Positions 6,681 through 25,878 of a DNA stretch of 26,177 bases are shown in pieces. A program made the position numbers and the translations under genes. The notes beneath the pieces are model-generated. The model saw only the letters and a list, made by a program, of their open reading frames with translations. It searched no databases and had not been told where the DNA came from. Every line of letters begins with the position of its first letter. Position 1 is the stretch's first letter. The stretch is from Candidatus Hermodarchaeota archaeon (GTDB lineage: Archaea > Asgardarchaeota > Lokiarchaeia > Sigyniarchaeales > SOKP01), in NCBI GenBank assembly GCA_048885925.1, contig JBHLLG010000036.1:1-26177 (forward strand). The letters are read 5' to 3'.

Positions 6681-6761
6681 AAAAGAATAAATAGCGTTTT
6701 ATTCCTATAATTTTAAATTTTAAAAGTCATTTATATTGATAAGTTCAAACTCGATGAAAAT

Positions 6762-8000: not shown

Positions 8001-8030
8001 TTAGAAGATGAAATAGAGAGGCGGTTTGAA

Positions 8031-8567: not shown

Positions 8568-8657
8568 AATTTTTCAATTAAAAATATTAAAATTAATAGT
8601 TTAATAACTTAAATGTGAAATATTTAATACATTACTCATTAATTTTTAAATTGTAGA

Positions 8658-9398
8658 ATGAGTCAAAATAAACTACTCCATGTCATTATTGATAATAGAG
8701 AACAAAAATTAATGGCTTTATTAGATAATAAAAAAGATACAATAACCTATGAATCAAAACAACTAGATATAGCAGATATTGTCATTTCTAACGAAGTTGC
8801 TATTGAAAGAAAAGAAGGTTTCGATTTTATTGCTTCAATAATGGATAATAGGTTATTTGAACAATTACTTCGTTTAAAAGATACGTATGAATATCCAATC
8901 TTAATATTAGAAGGTTTAAATGATGAGGTATTTGAAAATACTGGCATGAAACTCTCATCGATCTACGGCGCCCTTGCTTTTATTTCATATAAATTAGGAA
9001 TTTCTGTAATTCCAACTAGGAATTTAGAAGATACAGCAATAGTTGTTGAAAGAATTGCTCATAGAGAACAAGTAAAAGATAGTTCACCAATATTTTCAAG
9101 AAAAGCCCCAAAACAGATGTCTAAAAAGGAAAGAAGATCTTTCATCATAGAGGGTTTAGCAGATATTGGTCCTAAAAAAGCGAATGCATTAATTGATAAA
9201 TTTAAAAATCCTTATCAAGTGTTTAAAGCAATAAAAAGGACGGAAATTACTTATACGAGGACTGGAAATCCTAAAGGTATTCGAGGGCCCCTAGAAGATC
9301 TAACTGGATTTGGTTGGAAATTTGTTGAGAAAAATCAAAGACTTCTTTTTGGGAAGAAAAAAAAAAGCCCTCAAAAAAAAATTAATGATCAATATTGA
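8658..9398 (+). CDS. xpf: Short XPF/Mus81-family (ERCC4 domain + HhH) structure-specific endonuclease
   Basis: IIDNRE, ADIVIS..VAIERK..DF..SI.D.RL.EQ (ERKX3D motif), LILEG, HhH IGPKKA; no helicase domain. Confidence 0.88.
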   Translation: MSQNKLLHVIIDNREQKLMALLDNKKDTITYESKQLDIADIVISNEVAIERKEGFDFIASIMDNRLFEQLLRLKDTYEYPILILEGLNDEVFENTGMKLSSIYGALAFISYKLGISVIPTRNLEDTAIVVERIAHREQVKDSSPIFSRKAPKQMSKKERRSFIIEGLADIGPKKANALIDKFKNPYQVFKAIKRTEITYTRTGNPKGIRGPLEDLTGFGWKFVEKNQRLLFGKKKKSPQKKINDQY

Positions 9399-10416: not shown

Positions 10417-10878
10417 GTGAAAAAAATGAAAAAATCAAACCTAGAGATTGGGTCATGGTTTATACTTTTTTTGGGAATATACACAACAGTTATAGCTCTT
10501 CTTTGGATATTTGTTACGGAAATCATGTTTGTAAGTGATTTTAAATGGTACACAGGGCAAGCATTTCCTGATTATTTAGAAAGTAATCCTGATTTTGCTA
10601 AAATATATATTATCAATAAGAAATTAATTGGATTTATGCTACTCACTATAGGTCTTTTAATTCTTTTAATAAATCAATATGCTTATCGAAAAGGTGAAAA
10701 ATGGTCGTGGTTTGCGATCTTCATAGCAGGAAGTATAGCATGGGGAACTTTTATAATTTATAAAATAGTAATTGGATATATTGGAGTCAGTATGATTACT
10801 TTTGCTCTTGGTGCTGCACTTGTATTTTTAGGAATAATATTCCCAATTAAGGAAATCTTCGGTAAAAAGACAGAATAA
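10417..10878 (+). CDS. Hypothetical 4-TM membrane protein
   Basis: Four hydrophobic segments and AYRKGEKWSW loop; T-tract right after stop; alternative ATG at 10426. Confidence 0.75.
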   Translation: MKKMKKSNLEIGSWFILFLGIYTTVIALLWIFVTEIMFVSDFKWYTGQAFPDYLESNPDFAKIYIINKKLIGFMLLTIGLLILLINQYAYRKGEKWSWFAIFIAGSIAWGTFIIYKIVIGYIGVSMITFALGAALVFLGIIFPIKEIFGKKTE

Positions 10879-10986
10879 TTTTTTTTTATTATTGAAAAAA
10901 ATTTTCAATAAAAATCTTCTATATAAGAAATTAATCATATAATAATCAAGAGGATAATTGAAATAGAATCATTTTGTTGATTAAAA

Positions 10987-12177
10987 ATGCTTGATATTAA
11001 CAATATTAGATATATTTGTGTAGTTGGAGCAGGGATAATGGGGCATGGTATTGCTCAAGTGTCTCTAATGGCTGGTTATACTGTCACTTTAATTGATTTA
11101 AAAGAAGAAATCGTAGATTATGGACTTAAAAAAATTGAAGAAGGTTTAGAAAAAATTAAAACTAAGAGCAAGCTAGGAGAAAGTATCTCCATTGATGATC
11201 TTATGAGAAAATGTAAAAAATCAATAGATCTAGTTTCTGCAGTCAAGGATGCTGATTTTGTATTTGAAGCGGTTGTAGAAAAAATGGAAATTAAAAAAAA
11301 AGTGTGTAACACAGTAATGCAATATTCACCCTCTCATTGTATTTTCGCCTCAAATACATCAACATTTAGAATAACTGAAATTGCAGACAATTCAAAAAGA
11401 CCCGAACAGGTTATTGGAATGCATTTTTTTCCACCAGTAGCTACTCAATGTTGTGTCGAAGTAATGAAAGGTGAAAAAACTCTTGATAAAGTCTTAGATA
11501 TAGGTGTAACTCTTGGTGAAAAATTACCCTGTACTAAAGGAAAAAGGCTTTCAGTACGAATTGAAAAGGAAAGTCCAGGATTTATTGCTAATAGATTATT
11601 AATTCCTTCACTTTTATATACCAATTGGATTTTTGATCAAGCGTATGAAAAGAATATTCCATGGGAACAGATTGATGCTGATGCTGGAGCAGGACAACTA
11701 ATCCCAATGGGCCCATGTCAATTAGCTGATTATCTTGGGATAGATGCTAGTTATAATAGTATGAAGAGTTATGAAAAATATATATCACCTGAATTTACTC
11801 CAGGTAAAGTGCTTACTAAACTCATAAATGAAGAAAATTTAGGAAAGAAGACAGGAAAAGGCTTTTATGATTGGACAAAAGGGACTCCAAAAATAAATTT
11901 AAGTAAAAAGGCTGGTTTATTTAATTCTGAAATTTTATTAGCAATTCAACTAAATGAAGGTTGTAAGCTTTTGGAAGAGGAAATTGTTTCTGGTTATAAA
12001 ATTATAGATGATGTTATGTTAAAAGGAACTAGTATGCCTGGCCCCTTTAGTGCTGGTAGGCATAATTTCGAAAGTTGGTCTAAATTGCTAGAAGATATCG
12101 CAGAAAAGATCGGAAAAGATTATCTTAAACCCTGTAAACTAATGAAATCTGGAGATTTCGTAAAAATGAGAAGATAA
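10987..12177 (+). CDS. 3-hydroxyacyl-CoA dehydrogenase (NAD-binding domain plus two C-terminal domains)
   Basis: VVGAGIMGHGIA, EAVVEK, FASNTS, GMHFF, PGFIANR, PMGP..LAD.LG.D, LGKKTGKGFYD, second helical repeat ending in MPGPF. Confidence 0.94.
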   Translation: MLDINNIRYICVVGAGIMGHGIAQVSLMAGYTVTLIDLKEEIVDYGLKKIEEGLEKIKTKSKLGESISIDDLMRKCKKSIDLVSAVKDADFVFEAVVEKMEIKKKVCNTVMQYSPSHCIFASNTSTFRITEIADNSKRPEQVIGMHFFPPVATQCCVEVMKGEKTLDKVLDIGVTLGEKLPCTKGKRLSVRIEKESPGFIANRLLIPSLLYTNWIFDQAYEKNIPWEQIDADAGAGQLIPMGPCQLADYLGIDASYNSMKSYEKYISPEFTPGKVLTKLINEENLGKKTGKGFYDWTKGTPKINLSKKAGLFNSEILLAIQLNEGCKLLEEEIVSGYKIIDDVMLKGTSMPGPFSAGRHNFESWSKLLEDIAEKIGKDYLKPCKLMKSGDFVKMRR

Positions 12178-12217
12178 TTTAGAATATTAAATTTTTCCAA
12201 TATTTTAAAAAAAAAGA

Positions 12218-12309
12218 TTAAAGCAATCCCATATATCTTTGAATTTGTGATTGGATAAGAAGTAGTTGGATATTGCGTGCACCACCAATAACTTCTTCTA
12301 TTTTACTTA
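12218..12309 (-). pseudogene. Detached 3'-end copy of the acyl-CoA dehydrogenase gene (direct repeat A1, att-like)
   Basis: 86/92 identical to 13219-13310; encodes SKIEEVIGGARNIQLLLIQSQIQRYMGLL*; followed on the - strand by a T9 tract (12207-12215). Confidence 0.95.
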
Positions 12310-12443
12310 GGTTAATAGAAGTATTTATTGAGTTAATCTTTATAATTTTGACACAAAGGTATAAAAATAATGAAATCATTATAGTATTTACATTGTTATA
12401 AAAAATGTAATTAAACCAAAAAATATTATAATAGAGGGTTAGA

Positions 12444-12989
12444 ATGAAAAAGCAAACAGTTACAAAAATATTAATAAGTATGGTATTTCTGATAGGTATA
12501 TCAGGAATTATGATCCCCGCTTCAGCGCAGCAAACTACTACAGTATATATCACTTTTAATGTGGAATTTACTATATATACACCTCAGGGGAATGTATTAG
12601 CTCATGTTTACACTACGGTTACCGATTTACCGTTTTTGAAAACTGGGGGTGCATATCATAGAGATAATATATGGCCTTTAATACCTTGGTTATACCCAAG
12701 CGACATCAGCGGGTCACCAGTAATTATATCTCAAGGCCAATTCCACTGTTGGCTGAGTTTTATGTCGCACTGGCCTGAACCACCCCTTCCGCTCGTTCAA
12801 AAATTTTGGGGAGATTTGACTATCATTGATGATCAAACGATGATGGGTAATTATTTCGACCTTGGATATGTAATTAGTGAAGAATTTCCAGAGGCTTTTC
12901 ATATTCCGGGTTGGATGATTCCGGTGCAAATTGGTAACACAGATATTTGGTATCTAGGATATACTGAATACATCGTTAGTTCTGTGTAA
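12444..12989 (+). CDS. Hypothetical secreted protein (cassette cargo)
   Basis: Signal peptide MKKQTVTKILISMVFLIGISGIMIPASA|QQ; GAGGGT RBS; Trp/Pro-rich mature region; several CCG/GCG/ACG/TCG codons, unlike neighbours; no family recognised. Confidence 0.8.
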   Translation: MKKQTVTKILISMVFLIGISGIMIPASAQQTTTVYITFNVEFTIYTPQGNVLAHVYTTVTDLPFLKTGGAYHRDNIWPLIPWLYPSDISGSPVIISQGQFHCWLSFMSHWPEPPLPLVQKFWGDLTIIDDQTMMGNYFDLGYVISEEFPEAFHIPGWMIPVQIGNTDIWYLGYTEYIVSSV

Positions 12990-13071
12990 AACTAACATAT
13001 GAAATTTTACCAATTAATTAAATATAAAACAGAACTCAATAGAAAATTGTTCAGGAGTTAATTTGTTTAAA

Positions 13072-13084
13072 TTTTTTTTTTTTT
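13072..13084 (+). terminator. T13 tract, probable archaeal intrinsic terminator of the cargo gene
   Basis: 13 consecutive T about 80 bp after the stop at 12989. Confidence 0.45.
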
Positions 13085-13218
13085 ATTGTATAATTTTACA
13101 ATTTTTAGAATAATCATATAATAGAGAGAAATACGAAAAATGTATTATTTTATCTTTAATATGAAATAAAAAAAAGTTTTATTTAATGATTTAAAGATTA
13201 TATATTATACTAATAAGC

Positions 13219-13310
13219 TTAGAGCATTCCTATGTACCTTTGAATTTGTGATTGGATAAGAAGTAGTTGGATATTGCGTGCACCACCAATAACTTCCTCT
13301 ATTTTACTTA
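13219..13310. repeat. Direct repeat A2 (functional ACAD 3' end)
   Basis: Partner of 12218-12309; offset 1001 bp. Confidence 0.95.
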
Positions 13311-14478
13311 CGTCACATAACTCATCTACAGGTGTATTATCTGTAACCGAGACTCCGCCCATATGTTGTTGTACTTCATAACATAATTCGTGTGTAAGTT
13401 TAGCTAAATAATATTTACCCTGAGAAGAAATCGATGCAACCCATTTTTCTGCTTCTTTAGAGGGTTTTTCGGTAAATAGAATTTTTTCATCATACACAGT
13501 TGCAGCTTGCAGAGCTAAAGCGGTTGCTGCATTAGATTTTGTTAGTAGATCTGCTAACCCATAGCCAACGCCTTGATATCTAATTACAGGCATACCAAAT
13601 TGTTTCCTTAAATTTGTATAGATTATGCCATATATTAATCCAGCCCAACAAATTCCAACACCACTGCCCATAATAGAAAGTCTTTCAGGAACTAAACCTT
13701 CAAACAATCTTTTATATCCAAGACCATCATCTGCAAGTACATAATCCTTAGGTACTAAGACATTATCTAATATAGTATGTGATATCTGGACTCTTGGAAC
13801 AGAATTAATTTTTAAACGTTCAGTTTTTACACCAAATTCACGAGCAATAAGTGCTTGAACCATAGTATCTCTAGGATTTTTTTCATCATATACACCATAA
13901 CACGCAAAATAGTCAGCTATCGCTCCATTGGTAGTATAGACTTTTTCTCCGTTAAAAATAACCCCGTCATCAGTTTTTGTGCATTTAGTCGTGAGGTTGA
14001 CAGCATCAGAGCCTCTTTCAGGTTCAGTAATACCAATACAACCAACTTTTTCTCCTGATAAAAGCTCATCCTGTACTTTTAGTGGTATATTAGATTCTCC
14101 TCCATGAGAGTAATAATGAAATGTAGGGTTACCACATAGAATTCCGGTTGCTACTCGAGATAATTCTAATTGTGGATCTAAAAGCGAAATATGTGTACCT
14201 AATAATATTTCTTTTTTCATTCCATATGGTTTAAAATCTTTCCAGGGATTAATTCGTTGGATATAACCGTGTTTTCCAAGCTCCGGAAGTAGACTATAAA
14301 CATCCTTTGATTTATCGATCTTAGGATGTAATTCTAAGCAAAATGCTTGAAGTTGGTTGCAGTATTCTTGTTCTTCATTATTTAGCATTGGAAAAATATT
14401 ATCATTAAAAATTTTGAAGACATTTTCCAATGACATCTTTTCAAGAATTTGGTCATCTATAATTTTCTCTTGAAACAT
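13219..14478 (-). CDS. Acyl-CoA dehydrogenase
   Basis: GCIGITEPERGSDA, FNGEKVYTTNG, RKQFGMPVIRYQGV, QQHMGG, IEEVIGGARNIQ. Confidence 0.94.
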   Translation of the reverse strand: MFQEKIIDDQILEKMSLENVFKIFNDNIFPMLNNEEQEYCNQLQAFCLELHPKIDKSKDVYSLLPELGKHGYIQRINPWKDFKPYGMKKEILLGTHISLLDPQLELSRVATGILCGNPTFHYYSHGGESNIPLKVQDELLSGEKVGCIGITEPERGSDAVNLTTKCTKTDDGVIFNGEKVYTTNGAIADYFACYGVYDEKNPRDTMVQALIAREFGVKTERLKINSVPRVQISHTILDNVLVPKDYVLADDGLGYKRLFEGLVPERLSIMGSGVGICWAGLIYGIIYTNLRKQFGMPVIRYQGVGYGLADLLTKSNAATALALQAATVYDEKILFTEKPSKEAEKWVASISSQGKYYLAKLTHELCYEVQQHMGGVSVTDNTPVDELCDVSKIEEVIGGARNIQLLLIQSQIQRYIGML

Positions 14479-14504
14479 TTTTTCATCAATTTAATTATTA
14501 TTGT

Positions 14505-14573
14505 TAAAAATTTTAATGACGTTATATTAATTAGTCTAAATTTTTTATTCCAATTAAATCTTTAAGATTAAAT
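14505..14573. repeat. Direct repeat B1 (69 bp, upstream/promoter region of ACAD)
   Basis: 65/69 identical, ungapped, to 18003-18071; contains AATCTT-T-AAGATT palindrome; lies 27-95 bp upstream of the ACAD ATG. Confidence 0.92.
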
Positions 14574-16105
14574 ATTGCTAAATACTAAGGAATTAATCTC
14601 AAAAGAAAATAAAATATGTTTTTAAACCAAATATGCATGAATAGAATATTTAAAAAAAGATAATTTTGAGTTGTACTACCTTAACTATTTCTACCATCTC
14701 TAATTTTTGACATTCCAGAATCTCATAATTAGGAATATTTTTCTTTAAATGATTGATAGAAACTTAACTGACATTCTTCTTCAGATAATTAAAAAGTTTT
14801 TAAATTCCCGAAATGTCATGTTAATTTGACAAAATTAGTATTTTATAGGATTCTTTATAAAGGATCGTAATAGCAATTGTTATAATTTATTATAAGATAT
14901 TATGAAACTTAATAAATATATGAAAAAGAAGCTGGAGAAAAATCATTGTTTTTATCCTAAATTTTATTCCAGTTAAAATTGTTTTTATTATTTTAATTTT
15001 AGATATTGATGTTCTGGATGGAATTATCGATCATGAATGTAGTATTAATCGATAATTAGAATATATAAAATGGGATATGTGAAAAAGTTATGAAACAAAC
15101 AAAAGAACAAGAATATAAAGTAGAATTAGAACTAGAAGAAAGAAAAGAAGCAAGCAAAATAAAAAGAATTCTCTCATGGATTATCCATAATCCGAAATTT
15201 CTTCTCATACCAGGTTATAGGCTAGAGGAATTATCTATTCGCGAATGTGAATATGAAAAAACGATAAGTAAAAGAAAGTTTATACAAAGATTAAAATCTC
15301 CATTAACGATATTAGGAATTTTAATCTTTTTTATGATTTCAACTTTCGCTATTTTCCCGGAATGGTTGTCTCAATATACATTTGAAGAAGCTAATGGTTT
15401 ATATTTTGGTGAATGGAAACCAGCATCTCTAGAACATCCCCTCGGCACCACAGATTTTGGGCGTGATATTTTAGCAAGGCTAATTTATGGGGCAAGGGGT
15501 TCTTTAACCATTGCTTTACCGTCTATTGGTTTTAGTGCTGTCGTTGGCGTAGTATTAGGGATTATTGCTGGATATTACGGAGGATCGGTCGATTCATTAA
15601 TAATGAGAATAACGGATGTCTTCCTTGCATTTCCGGGTCTGATCCTTGCGCTTGTATTTATAGCAATTTGGGGTCCAAGGATGGAATGCATAATGCTAGC
15701 TTTTGGAATTCTCGGTGTTCCTTGCTATTCACGGTTAATTCGAGGAGTAGTATTGCAAGCTCGAGAATTACCCTATATTGAAGCCGCAAGAGCATCTGGA
15801 TCCGGAAATTGGAGAATAATATTTAGACACATCTTTCCAAATACTATTCAACCAATCATTATTTCTCTTTCATTCAATAGTGGTGGAGTCATTTTAGCTT
15901 TAGCAGGTCTTGCCTTTCTGGGTTATAGTGACATCAGATTAATTGAATGGGGAAATGACTTAAATGATGCACGACTTCACTTATATGATGCTCCTTGGGC
16001 AGCATTTTGGCCAGGTTTTATGATCTTTATTACTGTACTTGGTTTTATGTTAGTTGGAGATGGATTAAGGGATGCTTTCGATCCGAGATTAAAGAATTTA
16101 TAAAA
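14574..16105 (+). repeat. Duplicated unit D1: ~516-bp non-coding leader + dppC
   Basis: Collinear with ~16421-17954 over the whole leader (e.g. AAAAGAAAATAAAAT, AGTTGTACTACCTTA, TTTGACATTCC, GTCATGTTAATTTGACA, GATATGTGAAAAAGTTATG) and the CDS. Confidence 0.93.
15090..16103 (+). CDS. dppC: Peptide/nickel ABC transporter permease DppC/OppC-like, copy 1
   Basis: HPLGTTDFGRDILARLIYGAR, EAA loop YIEAARASG, RHIFPN, GDGLRDAFDPR; ~60-aa charged N-terminal extension. Confidence 0.92.
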   Translation: MKQTKEQEYKVELELEERKEASKIKRILSWIIHNPKFLLIPGYRLEELSIRECEYEKTISKRKFIQRLKSPLTILGILIFFMISTFAIFPEWLSQYTFEEANGLYFGEWKPASLEHPLGTTDFGRDILARLIYGARGSLTIALPSIGFSAVVGVVLGIIAGYYGGSVDSLIMRITDVFLAFPGLILALVFIAIWGPRMECIMLAFGILGVPCYSRLIRGVVLQARELPYIEAARASGSGNWRIIFRHIFPNTIQPIIISLSFNSGGVILALAGLAFLGYSDIRLIEWGNDLNDARLHLYDAPWAAFWPGFMIFITVLGFMLVGDGLRDAFDPRLKNL

Positions 16106-16172
16106 TCGTTTTTCATTAGTGGAGAGTCATTTAGTCAATTTTGATAGTTTTGATAATTTAGAAGATACAGAG

Positions 16173-16201
16173 AAAATATTAAAAAATTAATTTTTAGTGG
16201 T
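16173..16201. repeat. Short relic matching the 3' tip and terminator of the ABC ATPase at 18141-18170
   Basis: AAAATATTAAAAAA-TTAATTTTTAGTGGT vs AAAATTTTAAAAAAGTTAATTTTTAGTGGT (one mismatch, one indel; 15-bp exact core = TTKN* codons). AT-rich, so moderate support. Confidence 0.55.
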
Positions 16202-16255
16202 TAAGGAAAAAGAGGAATTTTGGTTAATTAAAATATGATCTTATAGTAAATTCCT

Positions 16256-16430
16256 TTATTTGAAATATTTATCAATAAAAGCCATTACTTTATTTATTTC
16301 TTCTAAAGGAGTATCTACACTGTTAAAAGTATAGAAACTAACTTCTGGATCTGTTCTACTTAGTCTGAAATATAGAATCGAATTTGAGCTTTTTTAGTTG
16401 TTAGATATCTATCATATTATTATTATCTAA
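16256..16430 (-). pseudogene. Decayed 3'-end fragment of the phosphohexomutase gene (direct repeat C1)
   Basis: About 137/174 nt (~79%) identical to 24121-24294 plus a 1-bp insertion; reads LDNNNMIDI*QLK/SSNSILYFRLSRTDPEVSFYTFNSVDTPLEEINKVMAFIDKYFK* vs SDNNDMIDIYQLKSNDSTLYFRPSGTGPEVRFYIFGNVETHLEEIQKVMEYIGNNYK*. Not in the ORF track. Confidence 0.93.
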
Positions 16431-17954
16431 TACTAATAATTTGATCTAAAAAGAAAATAAAATGTGTCATTAAATTTAACAGATACATAGAGAATATAAA
16501 AAAAATAATTTTTAGTTGTACTACCTTAGCTATTTTTATAATCTCTCACTTTTGACATTCCATAATCTCATAAATAGGATTTTTATTCTTTATATGATTG
16601 ATAATAACTTAATTGACATTCTTATTTTGATAATTAAAAGATTTTTTAACTGTTGAATTCAAAGTCATGTTAATTTGACAGAACTAGAATTTAACAAGAT
16701 TCTTTATAAATGATAATAATAGCTATTGTTACAATTCAATAAAAGATATTATGAAACTTAAAATATATATGAAAAGGAAGCCGGAGAAAAATTATTATCT
16801 ATATCCTAAATTTTATTCAAACCAAAATGGTCTTTATTAGTATAAATTTTGGTATTGAAGTTCTGTATGCAATTATTGACTACGATTATGATATTAATTA
16901 ATAATTAAAATAGATAAAATGAGATATGTGAAAAAGTTATGAAACAAACAAAAGAACAAGAATATGAATTAGAATTAGAACTAGAAGAAAGAAAAGAACA
17001 AGGTATTATAATTAGTACGCTCTCATGGATTATCCATAATCTGAAATTTCTTTTTATACCGGGTTATAGGCTTGAAGAATTATCTATTCGGGAATTTGAA
17101 TATGAAAAAACGATAAGCAAAAGAAAGTTTATACAAAGATTAAAATCTCCATTAACCATTTTAGGTATTTTGATCGTTTTTTTTATTTCAACTTTCGCCA
17201 TTTTTCCGGAATGGCTTTCTCAATATACATTTGAAGAAGCTAATGGTGTATTTTATGGCGCATGGCAACCTGCCTCCCCAGAACATCTCCTCGGTACTAC
17301 GGATTTTGGACGCGACATTTTAGCAAGGCTTATTTATGGGGCAAGAGCGTCTTTAACCATTGCTTTACCGTCTATTGGCTTTAGTGTAATTCTTGGCGTT
17401 ATATTCGGTGTTATTTCTGGATATTACGGAGGATGGATTGATTCATTAATAATGAGAATAATGGATATCTTTCTTGCGTTCCCAGGCCTGATCCTTGCTC
17501 TTGTATTTGTTGCAATTTGGGGCCCAAGAATGGAATATATAATGTTAGCTTTTGGAGTTTTAGGTGTACCGTTTTATTCACGGCTAATTCGAGGGGTAGT
17601 CTTACAAGCGCGAGAATTGCCTTATATTGAAGCTGCAAGAACATCAGGATCAGGAAATTGGAGAATTATGTTTCGACATATCCTTCCAAATACTATACAA
17701 CCTATCATTATTTCTCTTACATTCAATATCGGTGGAGTTATTTTAGCTCTAGCAGGTCTTGCCTTTCTGGGTTATAGCGACATCAGATTAATTGAATGGG
17801 GAAATGACATAAATGATGCACGGCTCCATTTATATGATGCACCTTGGGCGGCACTTTGGCCTGGCTTTATGATCCTTATTGCTGTGCTTGGTTTCATGTT
17901 AGTTGGTGATGGATTAAGAGATGCGTTAGATCCGAGATTAAAGAATTTATAAAA
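16421..17954 (+). repeat. Duplicated unit D2: ~516-bp non-coding leader + dppC
   Basis: Second copy of 14574-16105; left edge coincides with the end of the mutase relic. Confidence 0.93.
16939..17952 (+). CDS. dppC: Peptide/nickel ABC transporter permease DppC/OppC-like, copy 2
   Basis: Same motifs and length (337 aa) as copy 1; about 46 substitutions (~86% aa identity) by manual count. Confidence 0.93.
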   Translation: MKQTKEQEYELELELEERKEQGIIISTLSWIIHNLKFLFIPGYRLEELSIREFEYEKTISKRKFIQRLKSPLTILGILIVFFISTFAIFPEWLSQYTFEEANGVFYGAWQPASPEHLLGTTDFGRDILARLIYGARASLTIALPSIGFSVILGVIFGVISGYYGGWIDSLIMRIMDIFLAFPGLILALVFVAIWGPRMEYIMLAFGVLGVPFYSRLIRGVVLQARELPYIEAARTSGSGNWRIMFRHILPNTIQPIIISLTFNIGGVILALAGLAFLGYSDIRLIEWGNDINDARLHLYDAPWAALWPGFMILIAVLGFMLVGDGLRDALDPRLKNL

Positions 17955-17973
17955 ATATTTTTTTTTATTATTT

Positions 17974-18008
17974 TTTTTATGTGTCGAAAGTTTTTCGACA
18001 CATAAAAA
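17974..18008. terminator. Perfect 16-bp inverted repeat with 3-nt loop (hairpin) between convergent genes
   Basis: TTTTTATGTGTCGAAA-GTT-TTTCGACACATAAAAA; preceded by T-tracts; overlaps the left edge of repeat B2. The repeat is certain, the terminator role is inferred. Confidence 0.6.
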
Positions 18009-18071
18009 TTTGAATGAATTTATATTAATTAGTCTAAATTATTTATTCCAATTAAATCTTTAAGATTAAAT
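18003..18071. repeat. Direct repeat B2
   Basis: Partner of 14505-14573; offset 3498 bp. Confidence 0.92.
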
Positions 18072-18155
18072 GCTGATTAACTTTGAAGATTTAATGTCTT
18101 AGGTAAACAAAATCAGGATTCATATATTATTGACAAATAAAAAATTTTAAAAAAG

Positions 18156-18920
18156 TTAATTTTTAGTGGTAACAGTTTCAATAATTTTACCGTCTCTCAT
18201 TTTTAGCATCCTTTCAGCAAGAACACCAACCATAGGATCGTGGGTTACCATTAAAATCGTTTGTTTAAGCTCTTGATTGAGTTCTCGTAATAGTTTAACA
18301 ATCTCCATACCCATTGTTGTATCAAGTTCTCCCGTTGGTTCATCAGCAATTAAGATGGAAGGTTCATTACATAATGCACGTGCAATAGCAACTCTTTGTT
18401 GCTCTCCACCCGAAAGTTCTGAAGGTAAGTAATCCTTCTTCTCTATTATGCCTACAAGGTCAAGAAATTTATTAACATTTCTTTCTATATCCTCTTTACG
18501 TTTACCAGCAAAAACCATTGGAAGTTCTGCATTTTCATAAGCTGAAAGCACAGGTACAAGGTTATAAAACTGAAAAATAAATCCAATTTCTTTTAGTCTT
18601 AAATTTGTACGTTGCGCATCATCCATATGAGCTATATTTGTTCTATTTATGTACACTGCACCACTTGTAGGATTATCGAGAGCTCCTATCATGTTTAAAA
18701 GGGTAGTTTTTCCAGAACCTGATGGTCCCATAACTGAAACAAATTCACCTTTCTTAATATCTATACTAACTCCATTTAGGGCTCTAATTTCAATCCCTTC
18801 CGTAATGTTATAAATTTTGGTCAAATCAAAAGTCTGGATCATAGCATCAGGATCTATTTCATAGCTTTTTATTTCCTGAGCTACTGAACCGTGTTTTTTT
18901 CCTTTTTTAAGTATTTTCAT
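18156..18920 (-). CDS. ABC transporter ATP-binding protein (LolD/MacB/FtsE family), subunit 2
   Basis: GPSGSGKTT, IGFIFQFYNL, LSGGEQQRVAIARAL, ADEPTGELD, VTHD; GAGGT RBS 7 nt before ATG. Confidence 0.95.
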   Translation of the reverse strand: MKILKKGKKHGSVAQEIKSYEIDPDAMIQTFDLTKIYNITEGIEIRALNGVSIDIKKGEFVSVMGPSGSGKTTLLNMIGALDNPTSGAVYINRTNIAHMDDAQRTNLRLKEIGFIFQFYNLVPVLSAYENAELPMVFAGKRKEDIERNVNKFLDLVGIIEKKDYLPSELSGGEQQRVAIARALCNEPSILIADEPTGELDTTMGMEIVKLLRELNQELKQTILMVTHDPMVGVLAERMLKMRDGKIIETVTTKN

Positions 18921-18934
18921 GTTTTATACCTCTA

Positions 18935-19738
18935 TCATGAATTATAGATTTCTTCAATAGGTTTTCCACCTTCTTTTTCACCAGTAAATTGTCCATCTCT
19001 GAGGGTTATAATCCTATCAGCTACTTCAGCGATTCTTATATTATGTGTTACCATTAATATTGACTCTCCAGCGTTCTTTAACTCTAAGAAAATTTTCATA
19101 ATATTTGTAGTTGTCTCTGTATCAAGTTCCCCTGTAGGTTCATCAGCAAGAATAATAAGGGGTTCGTTAACTAAAGCTCTTGCTATTGTAACTCTCTGTT
19201 GTTCTCCACCGGACATCTGAGTGGGCAGATGTTCCATTCGTTCATGAAGCCCAATTCGTATTAAAAGATTTTTAACTTTTTCTTCTCTTACTTTAGGATC
19301 TTTTTTAGCTAACACCATCGGAAGCTCTACGTTCTCGTAAGCTGTGAGAATTGGAAAAAGATTGTAAAATTGAAAAATCAATCCAATTTTTTTTAATCTC
19401 ATTTTTTTATATTGTTTATTGGTCATTTGTGTGATATCGAGCCCCATACCCTTCGCATCGACATTATATATGATCTTACCTGAATCTGGAAAATCAAGAG
19501 CGCCAAGACAATTTATTAATGTTGTTTTACCAGAACCAGATGGACCTACAATTGCAATAAATTCACCTTTTCTAACTGTTAATTTAACCTTGTTAAGTGC
19601 TGTAATTGTGGAATTACCTATTGTGTAAGTTTTAACAAGATCATGCACATCAAGAACTATATTAGGATCTATCCTAACTGCTCTTGCCGTAGATCTTTGT
19701 TCTTTATTCATTCTCACTTTTTTCTTTTTAGTTGATAT
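18935..19738 (-). CDS. ABC transporter ATP-binding protein (LolD/MacB/FtsE family), subunit 1
   Basis: GPSGSGKTT, IGLIFQFYNL, MSGGEQQRVTIARAL, ADEPTGELD, VTHN. Start uncertain: TTG 19768, ATA 19738 (5 nt after AGGTGA, preferred) or a downstream ATG. Confidence 0.93.
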   Translation of the reverse strand: MSTKKKKVRMNKEQRSTARAVRIDPNIVLDVHDLVKTYTIGNSTITALNKVKLTVRKGEFIAIVGPSGSGKTTLINCLGALDFPDSGKIIYNVDAKGMGLDITQMTNKQYKKMRLKKIGLIFQFYNLFPILTAYENVELPMVLAKKDPKVREEKVKNLLIRIGLHERMEHLPTQMSGGEQQRVTIARALVNEPLIILADEPTGELDTETTTNIMKIFLELKNAGESILMVTHNIRIAEVADRIITLRDGQFTGEKEGGKPIEEIYNS

Positions 19739-19768
19739 TTTTATCACCTTTTTTATTTTATAATACAA

Positions 19769-22700
19769 TTATCTGGTTCTTACTGCATCTATAATATTTA
19801 AATTTGCAGCCCATTTTGCTGGATAACGTGAGCTCAGAATTACAGTTAGTAATACTGTTCCTACTAAAATGCCAATAGTTAACCATGGAATGGTCCAAGT
19901 AACGGCGAGAAATCCACCTCCAGGCATCGTATCCACCATCAAGGTACCTAAAATTAAACCTGCAAGAATACCTGTAAATAGGCCTAAAAGTGCTAAAATT
20001 AAGGTTTCTCCTGATATTGAACGTATGACGCCTTTTTTACTTAATCCTATTGATCTAAGCATACCTATTTCTCTCCTACGCGCCATGGTTGTAAGAAGAC
20101 TATGAAGTGTTAAACCGATCATTGCGATTATTATAGATAAGATAAGTAAGCCATTTGTTATGAAGACAATTAAATTAAGCATAGTTGTGAAGGTGGATCT
20201 CATAAAAGATTTTGTAAACGAGAATATTATAAGATACCCTCTATCTTCAATAAATTGGACTAATTCTTCTAAGACTGTTTCATCTTTTACTCCTTTTTCT
20301 ATCCATGCGAACCAATCATATACATTAGTTCTGATTTGTAGATTGAAAGATTTAACGTCCGCTATTGACCAGTACCCACCTGCCATAAGGGTAAGATCTT
20401 GCATTAGCTTATCCTTAGTAGTGGTAATATTATATGGATCATTACAATGGACTAAAACGGAAGTTATCATATCAGTAGAATAATTATTTCCTTTATATTT
20501 AGAATAAATGATGCTTCTAGCCTTATCATAATTAATGTATACTGAATTTCCGCTAACATCAATACCTGTTTCAAAACCAGCATACCAATGGTACCTCTCT
20601 GTATTATTTAATGTAGGTGTGTCAATAATTCCAATAATTTCGAACTCTGGCCATGTGAAAGGATTAGTTAGGGAATAAGATGAGATTGCTACTCCAAATT
20701 TTAAACTATCAATCGTTAAATTATAATTACTATTATACGTAGAATTCTGCCCTATTATTCTTAATTTGATATTATTCATTGGATCAAAATAATAATGATT
20801 TAAATTGAAAGTAAAAGTATTATTATTTTCTGCCGAGTTACTAATAGGTCCTAGACTTTCAAATGCATTAGTATATATATTAAATGCTTCCAAATCGAGA
20901 TTGTCCACAGTGGTATTAAGTGAAGTTTCAATTGTAACATTAATAGCACTATAAATATTAGGGGTTAGAAAACTAGTAGTTATGTTAAATGCAAGCCACT
21001 CATGATTACTAACAAAAGAGAGGTAAATATTGTCAGAAAGATATAAATCAGTTGTACTACCCGAGGTTGATGTATAATTATTCATATAAGGAAAAACAGT
21101 TGTATTATAGGGAAGATATCCTACGGGTACAGTTCCCAAAATGAATTGTTGTGGAAAAATACTGATATTATCACCAATCCCTAATGAAGGATGATTCTTA
21201 ATAAAGATTTCATCAACAACACACACATTTTCTGTTGTTGCATTTAAAATTTCTTCCATTGTGGTTCCATCATATCCTATTTTTTGTTCTATAAGATGAT
21301 TATTTCCAAAATAAGAATCAGATTTTAAATTTCCACTTGATTTAGTGAGAATACCAACCACTGGAGTCTGAAAATCTGGCTCTAAACCATCAAATATAGG
21401 TGTAAAATAATCCATTCTCGTAGTATAATACTCAATTCCACTAATACTGTCCAATATTGTCTTTATATTAGAAAAATTGAACCAATTTGATTGAGCAATA
21501 TCTGTCATTGGACTTCCAGTTTGAGTTAATTGCCTGAAAACCATATCAGTGCCTCCTCCAGGTAAACTTTTTGATGCGATTTCTTCATAAGTTGTCCACG
21601 AGATAAACATGTTGTAAGTCTTTCCTTGGCTTGTACCCATAAGATCTAGGGTTGAAAAACCTTGAAGATTACTAATAATTGCAATAACGCTCATATTTAT
21701 TACATATATATCTTCATGTATATTATAGTCATCTCCATTCAATATTGCGGTCAAATTCGCATAGGTTAAACCTAAAGAGAATTTTACAGGTAAAGTTTCA
21801 CCAACTTTGACATCATAATTGTCGGCAAATTCCTTGTCAATTATAATTTTATTTCCCATTTCAATTTCATTCATCATTTCAATTAGACTCATAGCTTTAG
21901 GTGATATTATTTCAGTTTTCGTCATATGTTCGCTAATTTTAGCTGTATCTATTACATTTATCATTATAGATTCATTCCATTCGTTATCAAGTAAGCTGTG
22001 TCCAATCCAATCATTATTCATTTGGATTTGAGCATTCTGATGACTCACACCCATTACATCCTTTACTCCTGATTGGTTGATGAGTCCGTCTTCGAAAGAT
22101 CTGGGAGTATTAAAAGTATAGACTCGAATATCAGCTCCCATAAAGTTATTAATAGTAGTATTAACGCCTGATCTCATTGAGTCCATCATAACACTCACCC
22201 CAATAAGAAAACTTGTTGTCAGTGCGATCATAATGAAAGTTAGGGTCGTTCTTCTTCGATGTCTCAGAATATTCTTCTCAGTTAATAATCTTGTTTTTCG
22301 AAGATAAGGAGAAAATAGTTTTACAAAAGCTTTATTAAGCGGTTTGATAATAAGCGCCATTATCCAAATAATTCCAAATAAGATAAAAATAGGACCAAAC
22401 ATTGAAAGAACCATTCCTTGCTGGGCTCCTGGACCTTGAATTTCTATAGGAGCATCAGGACTTGAAATAATAAACCAAATGCCAGTAAAAATTAGTAACC
22501 CGCCTAATATGAATAATATTAGCCTTCTCCAATAATGTTTTTTCTCTCTTTTAGTCTTCTCTTCAATAGGATTTAAACATTCAATAATAGGTTTACGGCT
22601 TGCTTTCCAACTAGGATAAAGTGAAGCAAATATACAAGAGATTAGCCCTACTAACAATGTAATTATGAGAGTAGTTGGATATAAAACAATTTCAAAATCT

Positions 22701-23941
22701 GAAATCGCAAATCCTGCCATTTGAGCTGCAATATCTTGAATTGCTTGCAATGTAACTGAAAATATTACATAAGCTATAAAATAGGAAAATATTGTTCCTA
22801 TCGTTGCTCCGATTATTCCCATTACTATACCTTGAGTTAAGAACATTTTAAATGTTTCTGATTTAGAAGCGCCAATTGCTTGAAACATGCCGGTTTCGTA
22901 CTCTTGTTCTTTTTTAATAATATTAAAAATATTCATCATTAATATTATTGACAGGATTAGTGCTATAATACCAAACAACGCAAACATAGTCCGCATTGCG
23001 CTCATCGTTGTTTCTATCATTTGTAAATTATCTGATTTTAAGTCTTCGACTTTCCAATCTCTTCCATCATTAAGATTTATTAAATTATTTTCAATCGTCA
23101 TCGCCACTGAAGAAACTGTATATATATCGTCAACACCTACAACACCTAAATTAAATTCACCAGTGTGGTTTTCTGTACCATCTACAAGTTCATGTGTATT
23201 TTTAATATTTGCAAATATACCAGGACCTTGTGAGAACATAGTAGATTCCATAGTAGATTCTGAACTATCCTCTGGATCGAAATCGCGTGCTTCACCAATA
23301 TCTCTAATTATGGCAACGACAGTATATTCTATCCATGTACCTGTATCAAGAGGATTATATCCCAAATATTCTCCTTCTTTTGGTAAAATCCAAACAGTAT
23401 CGTTCGCTTCAAAATTTTTTCCTAACTCAATTTTTAATGATTCCGAAATAACTACTACTCTATCTCCAGTAATTTCATGTGTATATTCAAGAAGTTCTTC
23501 AATTGTATCACCACCATTTATGGAATCTATTATATATGGCTTCCCACCTAACTTTTGTTCATCTAAATTTTGAGGATCAATACCATAAATTCCAGTTATA
23601 GTACTATTGTCTACTTGATTTCCACTTCCAGTAGCACTAGCATAAACATTAAACCCCGAAATCCTGTAAGCAGTCGATTCAACATGTTTAACCTCTTCAA
23701 TTTCACTATTAATTTCATTGGGAACAAACCACCCATCGGTACTATTAGTAGATCTGATTAAAATGTCTGCAGTACCCAATTGCTCATCAATAGTTTTTAA
23801 CATCATTTCATTGAATGAATCAGAGACAATCATAACTCCTCCAAACAATGCTACACTTATTATAAGTGTAATTGTAGTCAAAATATAGCGAACTTTCCGT
23901 CTTTTCATATTACGTAAGGCAATTTTAGTTATTACACCCAT
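19769..23941 (-). CDS. Giant FtsX/MacB-family ABC permease (two fused permease modules, expanded extracytoplasmic domains)
   Basis: IALRNMKRRKVR.ILT / KNILRHRRRTTLT module starts, ETGMFQAIGASK and RRREIGMLRSIGLSK motifs, YPSWKASRKPIIECL and YPAKWAANLNIIDAVR module ends; many N-x-S/T sequons. Confidence 0.92.
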   Translation of the reverse strand: MGVITKIALRNMKRRKVRYILTTITLIISVALFGGVMIVSDSFNEMMLKTIDEQLGTADILIRSTNSTDGWFVPNEINSEIEEVKHVESTAYRISGFNVYASATGSGNQVDNSTITGIYGIDPQNLDEQKLGGKPYIIDSINGGDTIEELLEYTHEITGDRVVVISESLKIELGKNFEANDTVWILPKEGEYLGYNPLDTGTWIEYTVVAIIRDIGEARDFDPEDSSESTMESTMFSQGPGIFANIKNTHELVDGTENHTGEFNLGVVGVDDIYTVSSVAMTIENNLINLNDGRDWKVEDLKSDNLQMIETTMSAMRTMFALFGIIALILSIILMMNIFNIIKKEQEYETGMFQAIGASKSETFKMFLTQGIVMGIIGATIGTIFSYFIAYVIFSVTLQAIQDIAAQMAGFAISDFEIVLYPTTLIITLLVGLISCIFASLYPSWKASRKPIIECLNPIEEKTKREKKHYWRRLILFILGGLLIFTGIWFIISSPDAPIEIQGPGAQQGMVLSMFGPIFILFGIIWIMALIIKPLNKAFVKLFSPYLRKTRLLTEKNILRHRRRTTLTFIMIALTTSFLIGVSVMMDSMRSGVNTTINNFMGADIRVYTFNTPRSFEDGLINQSGVKDVMGVSHQNAQIQMNNDWIGHSLLDNEWNESIMINVIDTAKISEHMTKTEIISPKAMSLIEMMNEIEMGNKIIIDKEFADNYDVKVGETLPVKFSLGLTYANLTAILNGDDYNIHEDIYVINMSVIAIISNLQGFSTLDLMGTSQGKTYNMFISWTTYEEIASKSLPGGGTDMVFRQLTQTGSPMTDIAQSNWFNFSNIKTILDSISGIEYYTTRMDYFTPIFDGLEPDFQTPVVGILTKSSGNLKSDSYFGNNHLIEQKIGYDGTTMEEILNATTENVCVVDEIFIKNHPSLGIGDNISIFPQQFILGTVPVGYLPYNTTVFPYMNNYTSTSGSTTDLYLSDNIYLSFVSNHEWLAFNITTSFLTPNIYSAINVTIETSLNTTVDNLDLEAFNIYTNAFESLGPISNSAENNNTFTFNLNHYYFDPMNNIKLRIIGQNSTYNSNYNLTIDSLKFGVAISSYSLTNPFTWPEFEIIGIIDTPTLNNTERYHWYAGFETGIDVSGNSVYINYDKARSIIYSKYKGNNYSTDMITSVLVHCNDPYNITTTKDKLMQDLTLMAGGYWSIADVKSFNLQIRTNVYDWFAWIEKGVKDETVLEELVQFIEDRGYLIIFSFTKSFMRSTFTTMLNLIVFITNGLLILSIIIAMIGLTLHSLLTTMARRREIGMLRSIGLSKKGVIRSISGETLILALLGLFTGILAGLILGTLMVDTMPGGGFLAVTWTIPWLTIGILVGTVLLTVILSSRYPAKWAANLNIIDAVRTR

Positions 23942-24061
23942 AGTTGTCTATCTCGTTTTTATTGAATTTTATTTGAATTTGAATTTTTTTTATTAATTCT
24001 CTATTTTGTTTTTTTTAAATTTTAATATCGATTTTTCTATTTGTTGTTTTAAGTCCTTTAA

Positions 24062-24096
24062 TTCTCTAATTTAATGTATTAGGGGTTATTAGAGAA
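24062..24096. promoter_or_regulatory. 9-bp inverted repeat TTCTCTAAT-N17-ATTAGAGAA upstream of the giant-permease operon
   Basis: Perfect arms at 24062-24070 and 24088-24096, between the mutase stop and the permease start; operator or terminator role is inferred. Confidence 0.3.
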
Positions 24097-24120
24097 AAGA
24101 AGTAGGATATATGAATTTTG

Positions 24121-24294
24121 TTATTTATAATTATTACCTATATATTCCATTACTTTTTGTATCTCTTCTAGATGAGTTTCTACGTTCCCAAAAATATAGA
24201 ATCTAACTTCTGGACCTGTTCCACTTGGTCTGAAATAAAGAGTTGAATCATTACTTTTTAATTGATAGATATCTATCATATCATTATTATCTGA
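24121..24294. repeat. Direct repeat C2 (functional mutase 3' end)
   Basis: Partner of 16256-16430; offset about 7864 bp. Confidence 0.9.
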
Positions 24295-25878
24295 TAAAGC
24301 ATGAACATCATAATTTTTTCCTCCAATTTTAACTCTTTTTCGATTGTTTAGTTCAAAGTTTTTCATAATATTAATTTTCTCTTCATCACTAGCAGAAATC
24401 GTAAGATTAATTCCTTTTATTGACCAATCAATTGATTTAGAGATGACAAAACCCCGACATATGAGTTCTGTAATTAAAATTAAGGCAGGAACAGGATATT
24501 TATCAGCAATAATGGCAAAATCAGTTTTGAAATTGTATTCCCCTGTCTGTTTATTCTTTATTATATCCAATAAATTGAGGGTATGACCTCCACTTTCTTC
24601 CCAATAAACCATTAAAAAAGATTCTTTCTCTATTTTTTGATTTTCCATTAATTTTATTATTTCTGCTTTAAGAGGATCTGGTGTATTTATCTTTATTAGA
24701 TTTCTATTCTCATCTTCAAAATAAAGAATTGCAGTATCAATTTTGGATTGATCAACTTCTATTCCCAGAAGGAAATACATAATTACTCCAAGGTGCTTAT
24801 ATCCAACTCCTGTTAAAATATTTATGAAACTCTGGTCATCGCTACGTAGGTCTGTTGGGATTGTTCTAACATTAACAATCCTTTTTCCATATTCCTTAGC
24901 TAAAATATTATGCATAGCAGAATAAATTTCATTAGGTATATAAGTGATATATTTTCCGTTTTGCTTAATATATAAGGCAATTCGATCTCTGTCTGCATCA
25001 AGTAATATTGCTACGTCTGAATTAACTTGATTCATAACACTTTGTAATTTATTTTCTCTAATTATTTTTATAGGATTCGGAGGATTGACTTCTTCCTCAA
25101 TTAGAGTTATTTTAGCACCGTATTCTTTAAAAAGATTAACAATTCCCCTTGCTTTTCCTAAATATGGCCAAATAACAATGTTTTTGCCTTTTATACTCTT
25201 GATCTCTAATACTCGTGATAAGAGTCTTTGTACATATTCATTATTTTTTTTCTCAGCATCAATAAAAATTGGATTGACAGATTTTAAATAAATTTCTCTA
25301 CATTCCAATGCTTTTTTAGATATTTCTTTAGATAAATTTCCCGATAAAGGTATTGGGAAATCAAAATAAACTTTAATTCCATTCCAAGATAAATCATTAT
25401 GACTAGCTGTCAAAATAATAACCAGATTTATATCATCATACAAAGCTACTGAAGCAGCTCCATAAGGAGAAGATATTCTTGATTTACCAGCTTCATCAAT
25501 TTGATAAAAAATGTTGAATCCATCATAAGCAAAAATCTCAGAACAATATTTTAATAAAATATCATTAGTTGGTCGGTCATCAGTAACTATTAAAATTTTG
25601 AGATTATGATTATTTTTCATTTCTTTAAATTGTTGGCTAATAGCTTTAAATACTCTAAAGAATAGAAAGAGCTTTTTCTTTGTTAATAAATATTGTTCTA
25701 CTTGTTCCTCTTTTTTAACATCAAAGATTTGAATCCTCAATCCTGAAGTTGGAGCAACAATTGGATCAATTATATCTTTTTCTTCATCTGTTAGTTCTGT
25801 TAACTTTAAAAGTTGACTTCCATCTTCTAATTGTTCTACTTCAATATCTTCGATATCAAATTCAATCAGATGATCCAC
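24121..25878 (-). CDS. Alpha-D-phosphohexomutase (phosphoglucomutase/phosphomannomutase family), divergent
   Basis: Phospho-Ser loop LTASHN..WNGIK, metal loop LDADRDR, GVGYK, WEESGG, phosphate-binding RPSGTGPEVRFY; acidic N-terminal extension; GTG start uncertain. Confidence 0.9.
   Translation of the reverse strand: MDHLIEFDIEDIEVEQLEDGSQLLKLTELTDEEKDIIDPIVAPTSGLRIQIFDVKKEEQVEQYLLTKKKLFLFFRVFKAISQQFKEMKNNHNLKILIVTDDRPTNDILLKYCSEIFAYDGFNIFYQIDEAGKSRISSPYGAASVALYDDINLVIILTASHNDLSWNGIKVYFDFPIPLSGNLSKEISKKALECREIYLKSVNPIFIDAEKKNNEYVQRLLSRVLEIKSIKGKNIVIWPYLGKARGIVNLFKEYGAKITLIEEEVNPPNPIKIIRENKLQSVMNQVNSDVAILLDADRDRIALYIKQNGKYITYIPNEIYSAMHNILAKEYGKRIVNVRTIPTDLRSDDQSFINILTGVGYKHLGVIMYFLLGIEVDQSKIDTAILYFEDENRNLIKINTPDPLKAEIIKLMENQKIEKESFLMVYWEESGGHTLNLLDIIKNKQTGEYNFKTDFAIIADKYPVPALILITELICRGFVISKSIDWSIKGINLTISASDEEKINIMKNFELNNRKRVKIGGKNYDVHALSDNNDMIDIYQLKSNDSTLYFRPSGTGPEVRFYIFGNVETHLEEIQKVMEYIGNNYK

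Follow-up and report, generated by a model that had tools for sequence, protein, structure and literature searches.

A 12-kb interval (positions 12,218 to 24,294) of a 26,177-nt contig from Candidatus Hermodarchaeota archaeon (an Asgard archaeon of the Lokiarchaeia), referred to below at its full length as the window, carries displaced copies of the 3' ends of its own genes: the tails of three minus-strand genes, encoding an acyl-CoA dehydrogenase (ACAD), an ABC ATPase and a phosphomutase, recur beyond inserted DNA. The inserts are an ORFan gene (orf181), two internally deleted copies of an opp operon that retain oppC, and an ABC operon. We consider this interval to be most likely a stack of scars left by general rather than site-specific recombination, with no dedicated machine behind it. 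Such scars are known, and this genus has them with unusual frequency and regularity. The window comprises all of contig C36 of a metagenome-assembled genome (MAG; G000, 3.9 Mb, 181 contigs, 29% G+C, 4.4% contamination).

Displaced gene ends in the window

Mapping by self-blastn and repeat finding recovered all the repeats that an initial annotation of the sequence had listed, in the order and with the collinearity it described. The repeats are direct and 47-1537 nt long; inverted repeats are weak and AT-rich, with the exception of a single hairpin. Pair A (12211-12312 and 13212-13313; E 4e-35) copies the last 31 ACAD codons and is 91.2% identical over 102 nt, a little below the 93% given initially, and pair C (16256-16432 and 24121-24296; E 1e-35) copies the last 58 mutase codons at 78.5% of 177 nt, in keeping with the earlier figure of about 79%, with relic C1 broken by a frameshift and stops. 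The third pair, B/E/a (14505-14708 and 18003-18204; 75.5% of 204 nt, E 4e-34), copies in its right part the last 16-20 codons of the ABC ATPase at 18156-18920. Its B part alone (14505-14615 versus 18003-18113) is 82% identical and is not a gene end: B is the ACAD upstream region, conserved beside ACAD in all congeners, which makes B2 a promoter region copied a second time, away from its gene. B2 lacks the 26 nt adjoining the ACAD start codon, and the B2-E2-a3 stretch is 82.7% identical to the spacer of genome G023. The two D units (14581-16113 and 16429-17962) are 84.6% identical over 1537 nt, and the small relic E1 (16155-16201) matches 16473-16519 at 85% (47 nt), its part 16173-16201 also matching 18141-18170 at 93% of 30 nt. 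As had been proposed, the target genes are intact and detached copies of their 3' ends lie beyond the cargo. The features referred to throughout are as follows.

10987-12177, plus strand: 3-hydroxyacyl-CoA dehydrogenase (3HCDH) gene (Pfam 3HCDH_N and 3HCDH), distal neighbour of the A insertion
12172-12312, minus strand: DR1, the 3HCDH stop, a short intergenic stretch and relic A1 (self-blastn, alignments)
12218-12312, minus strand: relic A1, the last 31 codons and stop of an ACAD allele, ending RYMGLL-stop with a T-run
12313-13055, plus strand: cargo A, the ORFan orf181 with its upstream stretch and a terminator hairpin
12444-12989, plus strand: orf181, which matches no Pfam family
13056-13313, minus strand: DR2, an intergenic stretch and the 3' end (A2) of the intact ACAD gene
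13219-14478, minus strand: intact ACAD gene (Pfam; 83-93% amino acid identity to 19 congener orthologs)
14505-14713, minus strand: B1-E-a1, the conserved ACAD upstream region, a spacer and a decayed ABC ATPase relic (about 14660-14713)
14581-16113, plus strand: unit 1, spacer, ATPase relic and internally deleted opp operon copy
15090-16103, plus strand: D1, oppC-type permease gene in unit 1 (Pfam)
16155-16201, minus strand: E1, a mini relic of the spacer tail and the last two ABC ATPase codons with the stop
16256-16432, minus strand: C1, a decayed relic of the last 58 phosphomutase codons, its body-side end forming the junction to unit 2
16429-17962, plus strand: unit 2, of the same composition as unit 1
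16939-17952, plus strand: D2, oppC-type permease gene in unit 2 (Pfam)
17974-18008: perfect palindrome with 11-bp arms extended by A/T, between the T-run of D2 and B2
18003-18204, minus strand: B2-E2-a3, the second, detached ACAD upstream copy, a spacer and the 3' end of the intact ATPase gene
18156-23941, minus strand: ABC operon, two ATPases and a 1390-residue FtsX/MacB-type permease (Pfam)
18156-18920, minus strand: first ABC ATPase gene
24121-25878, minus strand: intact PGM/PMM-family phosphomutase gene (Pfam), with C2 at 24121-24296

Scanning of 11 window proteins against Pfam revealed no recombinase or transposase domain in any of them, in line with the initial description of the zone as recombinase-free, and scans for tRNAs and Rfam families found neither in the window.

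The orf181 insertion beside ACAD is polymorphic among close populations. To check the assembly we used Logan contigs from several studies, X1 representing the likely source sample and X5, X7 and X8 other studies. Contigs X5, X7 and X8 (three studies), not X1, join position 12171 directly to 13056, a haplotype with an 884-nt deletion that lacks the short intergenic stretch, A1 and orf181. This joint has a 2-nt overlap and lies 6 nt before the end of the 3HCDH gene, and it thereby defines the true repeat as 12172-12312 versus 13056-13313 and the cargo as the 743-nt segment 12313-13055. Because a metagenome contig (L042) is homologous to window positions 12409-13078, that is, over the 13055/13056 joint, the short haplotype is probably a microhomology deletion of a state resembling that of the window. 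Separately, the agreement of one X7 contig with the window starts at 12314 and continues to the right, and at least 255 letters before that point are unlike the window, the change falling exactly between A1 and the cargo; in the X7 sample, the upstream stretch of orf181 may have another context.

The two ACAD ends differ in kind. The A1 end (RYMGLL-stop, T-run) is the ACAD end usual in the genus, and the working A2 end (RYIGML-stop, last 22 nt) is atypical. Eight of the nine differences between them fall within the last 28 nt, and four are synonymous and three non-synonymous. In a three-way test A1 agrees with congeners at 4-5 sites and A2 at 0-1, small numbers with P values of 0.06-0.38. At 37.7% G+C orf181 ranks in the top 2% of genes; none of 52 congener genomes contains a homolog, and five relatives were found among 5.8 billion proteins.

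Both D units derive from the opp operon of this same genome (C8:33422-33792 plus C8:35066-36217), copied with a deletion of oppB and comprising the opp promoter region, the last ~110 nt of oppB and then the oppC-type permease gene, which rules out D1 and D2 as foreign DNA. The opp copy sits within the ABC ATPase tail, and units 1 and 2 have in common the ATPase-tail junction, the oppB deletion and a premature stop in the ATPase relic. All three oppC copies are constrained (dN/dS 0.06-0.16), D1 having a dN/dS of 0.15 versus both D2 and the C8 copy. Among the 52 congener species genomes none has the oppC unit, save for a 76% oppC match in G018; as orf181 is likewise missing there, the source of the units could not be traced. 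Elsewhere in the same genome, C80:3741-5900 is a 2160-nt oppB and oppC copy 97.7% identical to C8:34033-36192, without the rest of the operon; this further copy arose through a recent segmental duplication of the operon from which D1 and D2 derive.

C1 ends (16432) where unit 2 begins (16429), with a microhomology, CTAATA/CTAAATA, at the contact. From this abutment 14581-16432 can be read as a collapsed version of 16429-24296, the two versions differing by ~5.9 kb (the ABC operon) and in their right-hand ends; the earlier view of 14505-16430 as a collapsed second ACAD-to-mutase interval is thus borne out. The D1, E1, C1 and unit 2 junction is bridged by contigs X7 (16080-16952), X8 (15853-16952) and X1 (15983-16921), and the passage from ACAD through B1 and a1 to D1 by X8 (14411-15103) and X5 (14530-15116), the bridging contigs of other studies being ~97-99% identical to the window. 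No listed contig covers the whole 12-kb interval, and reads appear cut at 17947-17984, which leaves the junction from D2 to the hairpin and B2 without an independent bridge. Missing contig cover (X8 beyond 18210; X7 over 22350-24005) was not taken as absence of the ABC operon. Three further joints (13182 to 20799, 19407 to 24256 and 18353 to 18895) were treated as spurious, as each rests on only 20-21 nt on one side. The palindrome at 17974-18008 folds with a dG of -17.4 kcal/mol (z -5.0; none of 200 shuffles folds as well) and occurs once in the genome; it could be a terminator or a fold-back repair scar.

Gene-end relics across the genome and the genus

We carried out a genome-wide census of gene-end relics on our own open reading frame (ORF) calls (3194 ORFs of at least 100 amino acids, longest start). 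With tblastn, 34 partial matches were found at most 10 kb away and outside same-strand called genes, 16 of them C-terminal, 4 N-terminal and 14 internal; away from contig ends, 12 of the 13 C-terminal matches lie downstream on the same strand. The filtered (low-complexity) tblastn missed the A1 relic, and the protein census is therefore conservative. With blastn, 86 short local direct pairs were obtained, 15 linking a 3' end to intergenic DNA, two a 5' end (one of these a 77-nt promoter cassette) and seven internal, of which three end within ~30 nt of a stop. Merging the lists by hand gave ~19 tail-relic loci (~5 doubtful) versus at most two head relics (binomial P 0.0002 for 19:2 and 0.002 for 15:2). 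The initial annotation had named beforehand a lack of 3'-end enrichment as the outcome that would speak against it, and the tally of about 19 to 2 leaves it unrefuted on this point. Among the doubtful loci is C62, beside an Lrp/AsnC gene, which may represent real stand-alone domain genes; the ambiguous loci C54, C74 and C95 (gene overlap, contig start, tandem paralogs) are counted among the ~19. At the C10 locus, a DNA search in relatives placed the gene, the cargo and the downstream part on different contigs and gave no clear polarity. In a closed congener genome (G006), the first 800 kb contain three tail relics, all downstream with convergent cargo, and at most one head relic, at the segment edge.

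The relics, 41 to 319 nt long, differ from the intact ends mostly at synonymous positions: in 11 of 16 pairs dN/dS is 0.06-0.31, with pS values of 0.20-0.72. Several relics of 29-85 codons are open in frame without a start codon, those of 69 and 85 codons among them. Low dN/dS in these pairs implies that relic and intact tail are different alleles, and judged by their substitution patterns these relics are fragments of once-functional alleles rather than decayed in-situ copies. C1 (dN/dS 0.53) and a1 (1.07) look neutrally decayed, and for these two an old in-situ duplication accounts equally well.

The cargo at other loci includes a Ras-family GTPase, an M14 peptidase, an MBL hydrolase and an esterase, and none of the 12 cargo proteins scanned there has a recombinase or transposase domain in Pfam. 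Single-gene cargo lies on the strand opposite to its target, facing it, in 9 of 10 cases in this genome and 3 of 3 in G006 (12/13, P 0.003), and in 12 of 13 single-gene cases the relic stands on the 5' side of the cargo. Of 14 distal neighbours, 8 run convergently with the target and 6 in the same direction as it. Two observations concern ribonucleotide reductase (RNR) genes of relatives. The RNR ortholog of G005 (C7:13125-16382) matches in two pieces ~1 kb apart within one open frame of 1095 residues, an interruption that looks like an intein, and G006 has a second RNR copy lacking the first 173 residues (positions 405167-406891 of its contig C1).

The slot itself is variable in congeners. 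Across 20 congener loci the mutase adjoins ACAD in 12, the ABC operon stands between them in 5 and beside an ACAD paralog in 2, and one locus is uninformative; neither oppC nor orf181 occurs at the slot in any of the 20. In G016, which has the ABC operon, a mutase tail relic of ~30-40 nt (~10-13 codons) lies directly after B and resembles the mutase ends of congeners in which mutase and ACAD are neighbours, not G016's own. Mutase breakpoints thus differ by species, with 58 codons here versus ~10-13 in G016. The slot downstream of ACAD is also variable. In G014 (L028 2778-2936) only the last 53 codons of 3HCDH lie beside the ACAD 3' end, with no intact copy nearby, a tail relic left by gene loss and not by insertion. 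G017 (L035) has tandem ACAD paralogs (6457-7692 and 7882-9132; 69% and 86% identical to the window ACAD), and its ABC operon adjoins the more divergent one. An apparently fresh 47-nt mutase relic in G019 (L021 3605-3703) was rejected, being a scaffold gap of 100 N flanked by identical ends; a gap of this type mimics a perfect 3'-end duplication and is a trap for an automated relic census.

Furthermore, orf181 was found at a second target. Contig L172, from another Asgard genome, carries an orf181 relative 83% identical at the nucleotide level to window positions 12409-13037, in the order tRNA-Leu and a 203-nt tail relic, orf181 relative, intact P-type ATPase gene, and the relic matches the intact P-type ATPase end at 76.8%. 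The orf181 cassette has thus come to lie next to two different target genes, with a tail relic on both occasions. Relic and orf181 of L172 are 82-83% similar to the window genome and the flanks 66-73%, a gradient that fits the spread of an existing insertion by flanking homology. The same contig has a 96-nt direct repeat (10711-10806 versus 10916-11011, 79%) in which part of the 3' region of an ArsR-type HTH gene is copied just downstream, next to a TPR gene; at C1:330986-333116 of the window genome, the cargo is made up of the same two genes.

Recombination as the probable source of the scars

In order to rationalise these repeats, we propose that DNA was placed at least three times just downstream of a minus-strand gene, and that each time the gene would have ended up with a complete 3' end, either retained or newly acquired, and a duplicate of that end would have stayed beyond the insert together with adjacent intergenic DNA. 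In the A event, the orf181 segment would have come to lie between the genus-typical ACAD end (A1, beside the old neighbour) and the working ACAD gene. In the a event, an opp operon copy from the same genome, internally deleted and carrying oppC, would have entered the last 16-20 codons of the ABC ATPase gene. In the C event, a 7.9-kb unit (oppC unit, second ACAD-upstream copy, ABC operon and mutase end) would have been joined to an older mutase end by a 5-6-nt microhomology at codon -58, the proximal copy lacking the ABC operon. Host general recombination may pair incoming or sister DNA bearing a copy of the target 3' end with the resident gene, and the cargo could enter either through one Campbell-type crossover of a looped-out circle or through one homologous and one microhomology joint. 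The repeats and junctions, the polymorphism, the bias across the genome and the allelic character of many relics are observed; the circle or fragment, its source and the enzymes are what we infer here. Insertions would survive only where the gene end is supplied twice. As to the mechanisms initially suggested, recombination with the DNA of relatives fits best, given that 11 of 16 pairs are different alleles, and site-specific integration is disfavoured by the differing mutase breakpoints; the further suggestion of an undescribed gene-acquisition system finds no backing, as nothing shows a dedicated system.

Several observations weigh against this proposal. The 65-nt identical, lineage-specific core shared by A1 and A2 means that later gene conversion must be assumed. 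Comparison of relic and intact end with relatives gives a mixed picture of which copy is resident: relatives resemble the relic more closely in the case of DHPS (5 of 6 outgroups, 3 of them significantly) and, weakly and without significance, in those of ACAD and L172, and they resemble the intact end more closely in the cases of RNR (significantly in 4 of 5) and the mutase (5 of 5). The oppC cargo derives from the same genome and not from a relative, and the near-equal distances among D1, D2 and the C8 oppC (dS 0.47 for D1-D2 versus 0.43-0.45 for D-C8) fit neither simple history. Neither the 3':5' bias nor the bias in cargo orientation follows from the mechanism, so selection must be invoked for both. 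The census rests on our own ORF calls and on short, partly saturated alignments, and an 800-kb sample of the closed genome G031, from another family, contained two tail and two head relics, none of the close-downstream type; the pattern is therefore not universal, and by the same token the pipeline is not biased by construction. Finally, neither a circle nor a back-joint was seen in the contigs, which cannot show rare forms.

A purely in-situ history would bring in no DNA from other lineages, and we give it a small but real chance. A tandem duplication of the 7.9-kb segment 16429-24296, joined at a microhomology, would have been followed by loss of the ABC operon from the proximal copy and by neutral decay of the redundant ends, with pair A arising as a separate small duplication plus insertion. 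Such a course accounts for the abutment of C1 and unit 2 at CTAATA/CTAAATA, for the collinearity of B1-E1-C1 with B2-E2-C2, for the apparently neutral decay of C1 and a1 with their frameshifts and stops, and for the derived features that units 1 and 2 have in common (oppB deletion, premature stop in the ATPase relic); the own-genome origin of the oppC cargo and the lack of the unit in any congener also agree with it. However, the D1-D2 dS is no smaller than that between either unit and C8, and copy 1 can be derived from copy 2 only by assuming two additional deletions. It also leaves unexplained the differences between A1 and A2, with their concentration at the very end and near-equal split of synonymous and non-synonymous changes, the low dN/dS of the 11 relic pairs, and the mutase relic of G016, which is unlike that genome's own mutase end.

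True cassette mobility in trans, either site-specific or otherwise enzyme-driven, we regard as very unlikely. An unrecognised enzyme would insert single-gene cassettes antiparallel to the 3' end of a gene and duplicate 50-320 nt of the target. What speaks for such an enzyme is the recurrence of orf181 in one architecture (relic, opposite-strand cargo, intact target) at ACAD here and at the P-type ATPase in L172, together with the orientation bias of the cargo in the window genome and in G006, the 65-nt identical core of pair A and the richness of the pattern in this genus as against the G031 sample. Against it, no recombinase was found among the 23 proteins scanned, and PF00589 has only two matches in the window genome, one a 307-residue Xer-like frame and the other broken by a stop, in a search that did not extend to other recombinase families. 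Moreover, mutase breakpoints vary between species, relic lengths range widely, relic and intact ends are mostly old alleles instead of fresh identical duplications, and the similarity gradient in L172 looks as if an existing insertion had spread by flanking homology.

An assembler stringing together variants of strains or species, as might be feared in a 181-contig MAG with 4.4% contamination and after the scaffold gap in G019, can practically be dismissed, since contigs of other studies bridge key junctions at 97-99% identity, the relic pairs are 75-91% alike and not near-identical, the window contains no N, and the closed genome G006 has relics of the same kind.

Known systems and significance

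Our proposal of general recombination resembles several described processes in part. For rhs C-terminal displacement, whose topology the interval shares, homologous recombination with circular intermediates that carry a copy of a gene end has been proposed (Jackson et al. 2009, PMC2935791). Rhs loci combine an intact gene with displaced same-strand copies of its own 3' end downstream, have no mobility gene and accumulate old ends, and the incoming rhs tip encodes a different toxin C-terminus and comes with its immunity gene. Displaced 3' ends likewise lie downstream on the same strand in all three window cases and in 12 of 13 genome-wide, and 11 of 16 pairs are distinct once-functional alleles, C1 (0.53) and a1 (1.07) being outside this group. 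In contrast to rhs, relic and working end here are homologous ends of metabolic or housekeeping genes over their whole length, and no alternative C-terminus with an immunity gene is seen; the cargo (permease, ORFan, GTPase, peptidase and others) is unrelated and usually on the opposite strand.

In homology-facilitated illegitimate recombination, one homologous and one illegitimate joint add foreign DNA beside a conserved gene (PMC3240628). Microhomology is present at both joints analysed here, CTAATA/CTAAATA at C1 and unit 2 and the 2-nt overlap at the 12171/13056 deletion, the former recalling the illegitimate joint of that process. The process was, however, described for linear DNA in transformable bacteria and for E. 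coli conjugation, and under it the resident allele should in every case be the relic, as is so here for only some loci (DHPS, weakly ACAD; the opposite for RNR and the mutase).

Cassette slots exchanged through flanking homology are a form of additive horizontal gene transfer (PMC11375855), and the minimal mobile elements of Neisseria (PMC3787668) are likewise reported to combine a slot between conserved genes with cargo that varies among strains and species and no mobility genes, and to spread by homologous recombination in the flanks. The present slot is variable in the same sense, being empty at 12 congener loci, occupied by the ABC operon at 5 and by oppC and orf181 only in this genome, with polymorphism among strains. 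To our knowledge, minimal mobile elements have not been described as leaving displaced copies of gene ends.

Integrase-borne elements such as e14 in icd enter a tRNA or protein gene at its 3' end, which they restore. As here, a copy of the target 3' end flanks the insert on either side and the target gene remains whole; unlike here, these elements have an integrase, a fixed crossover site and short identical att cores. The window has no integrase, varying breakpoints and diverged repeats: apart from the core of pair A, the other window pairs are 75-79% alike without a clear core, and the crossover position at one gene, the mutase, is not the same in G016. For an integron, no integrase was found in the window by Pfam, attC sites not having been searched; for an insertion sequence or transposon, the window has no transposase domain and, besides the hairpin, only weak AT-rich inverted repeats. 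Of a tandem duplication the interval has the novel junction, with copies that differ by ~5.9 kb and at their right-hand ends. No description of the displaced-tail pattern in Asgard archaea was found in the open-access literature searched.

It is conceivable, although we doubt it, that the genus gains genes by a cassette route that needs no element-borne recombinase. Units of promoter, gene and terminator, with a 50-320-nt copy of a host 3' end, would be inserted antiparallel, loop out and re-enter by homology and occasionally reach a new target, the 3' and orientation biases then being a product of mechanism and not of selection. The orientation rule and the presence of one cassette at two targets keep a real insertion route of this sort in play.

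If general recombination is indeed the source of the scars, displaced gene ends would be datable and countable footprints of gene addition in Asgard archaea, a process that would then proceed through general recombination with the DNA of relatives or of the genome itself at the ends of transcription units and not through mobile elements. The scars would also flag recently gained genes, among them a Ras-family GTPase, a peptidase and ORFans, and in a group that has hardly any genetics they could serve as a gauge of how much gene flow there is and in which direction it runs.

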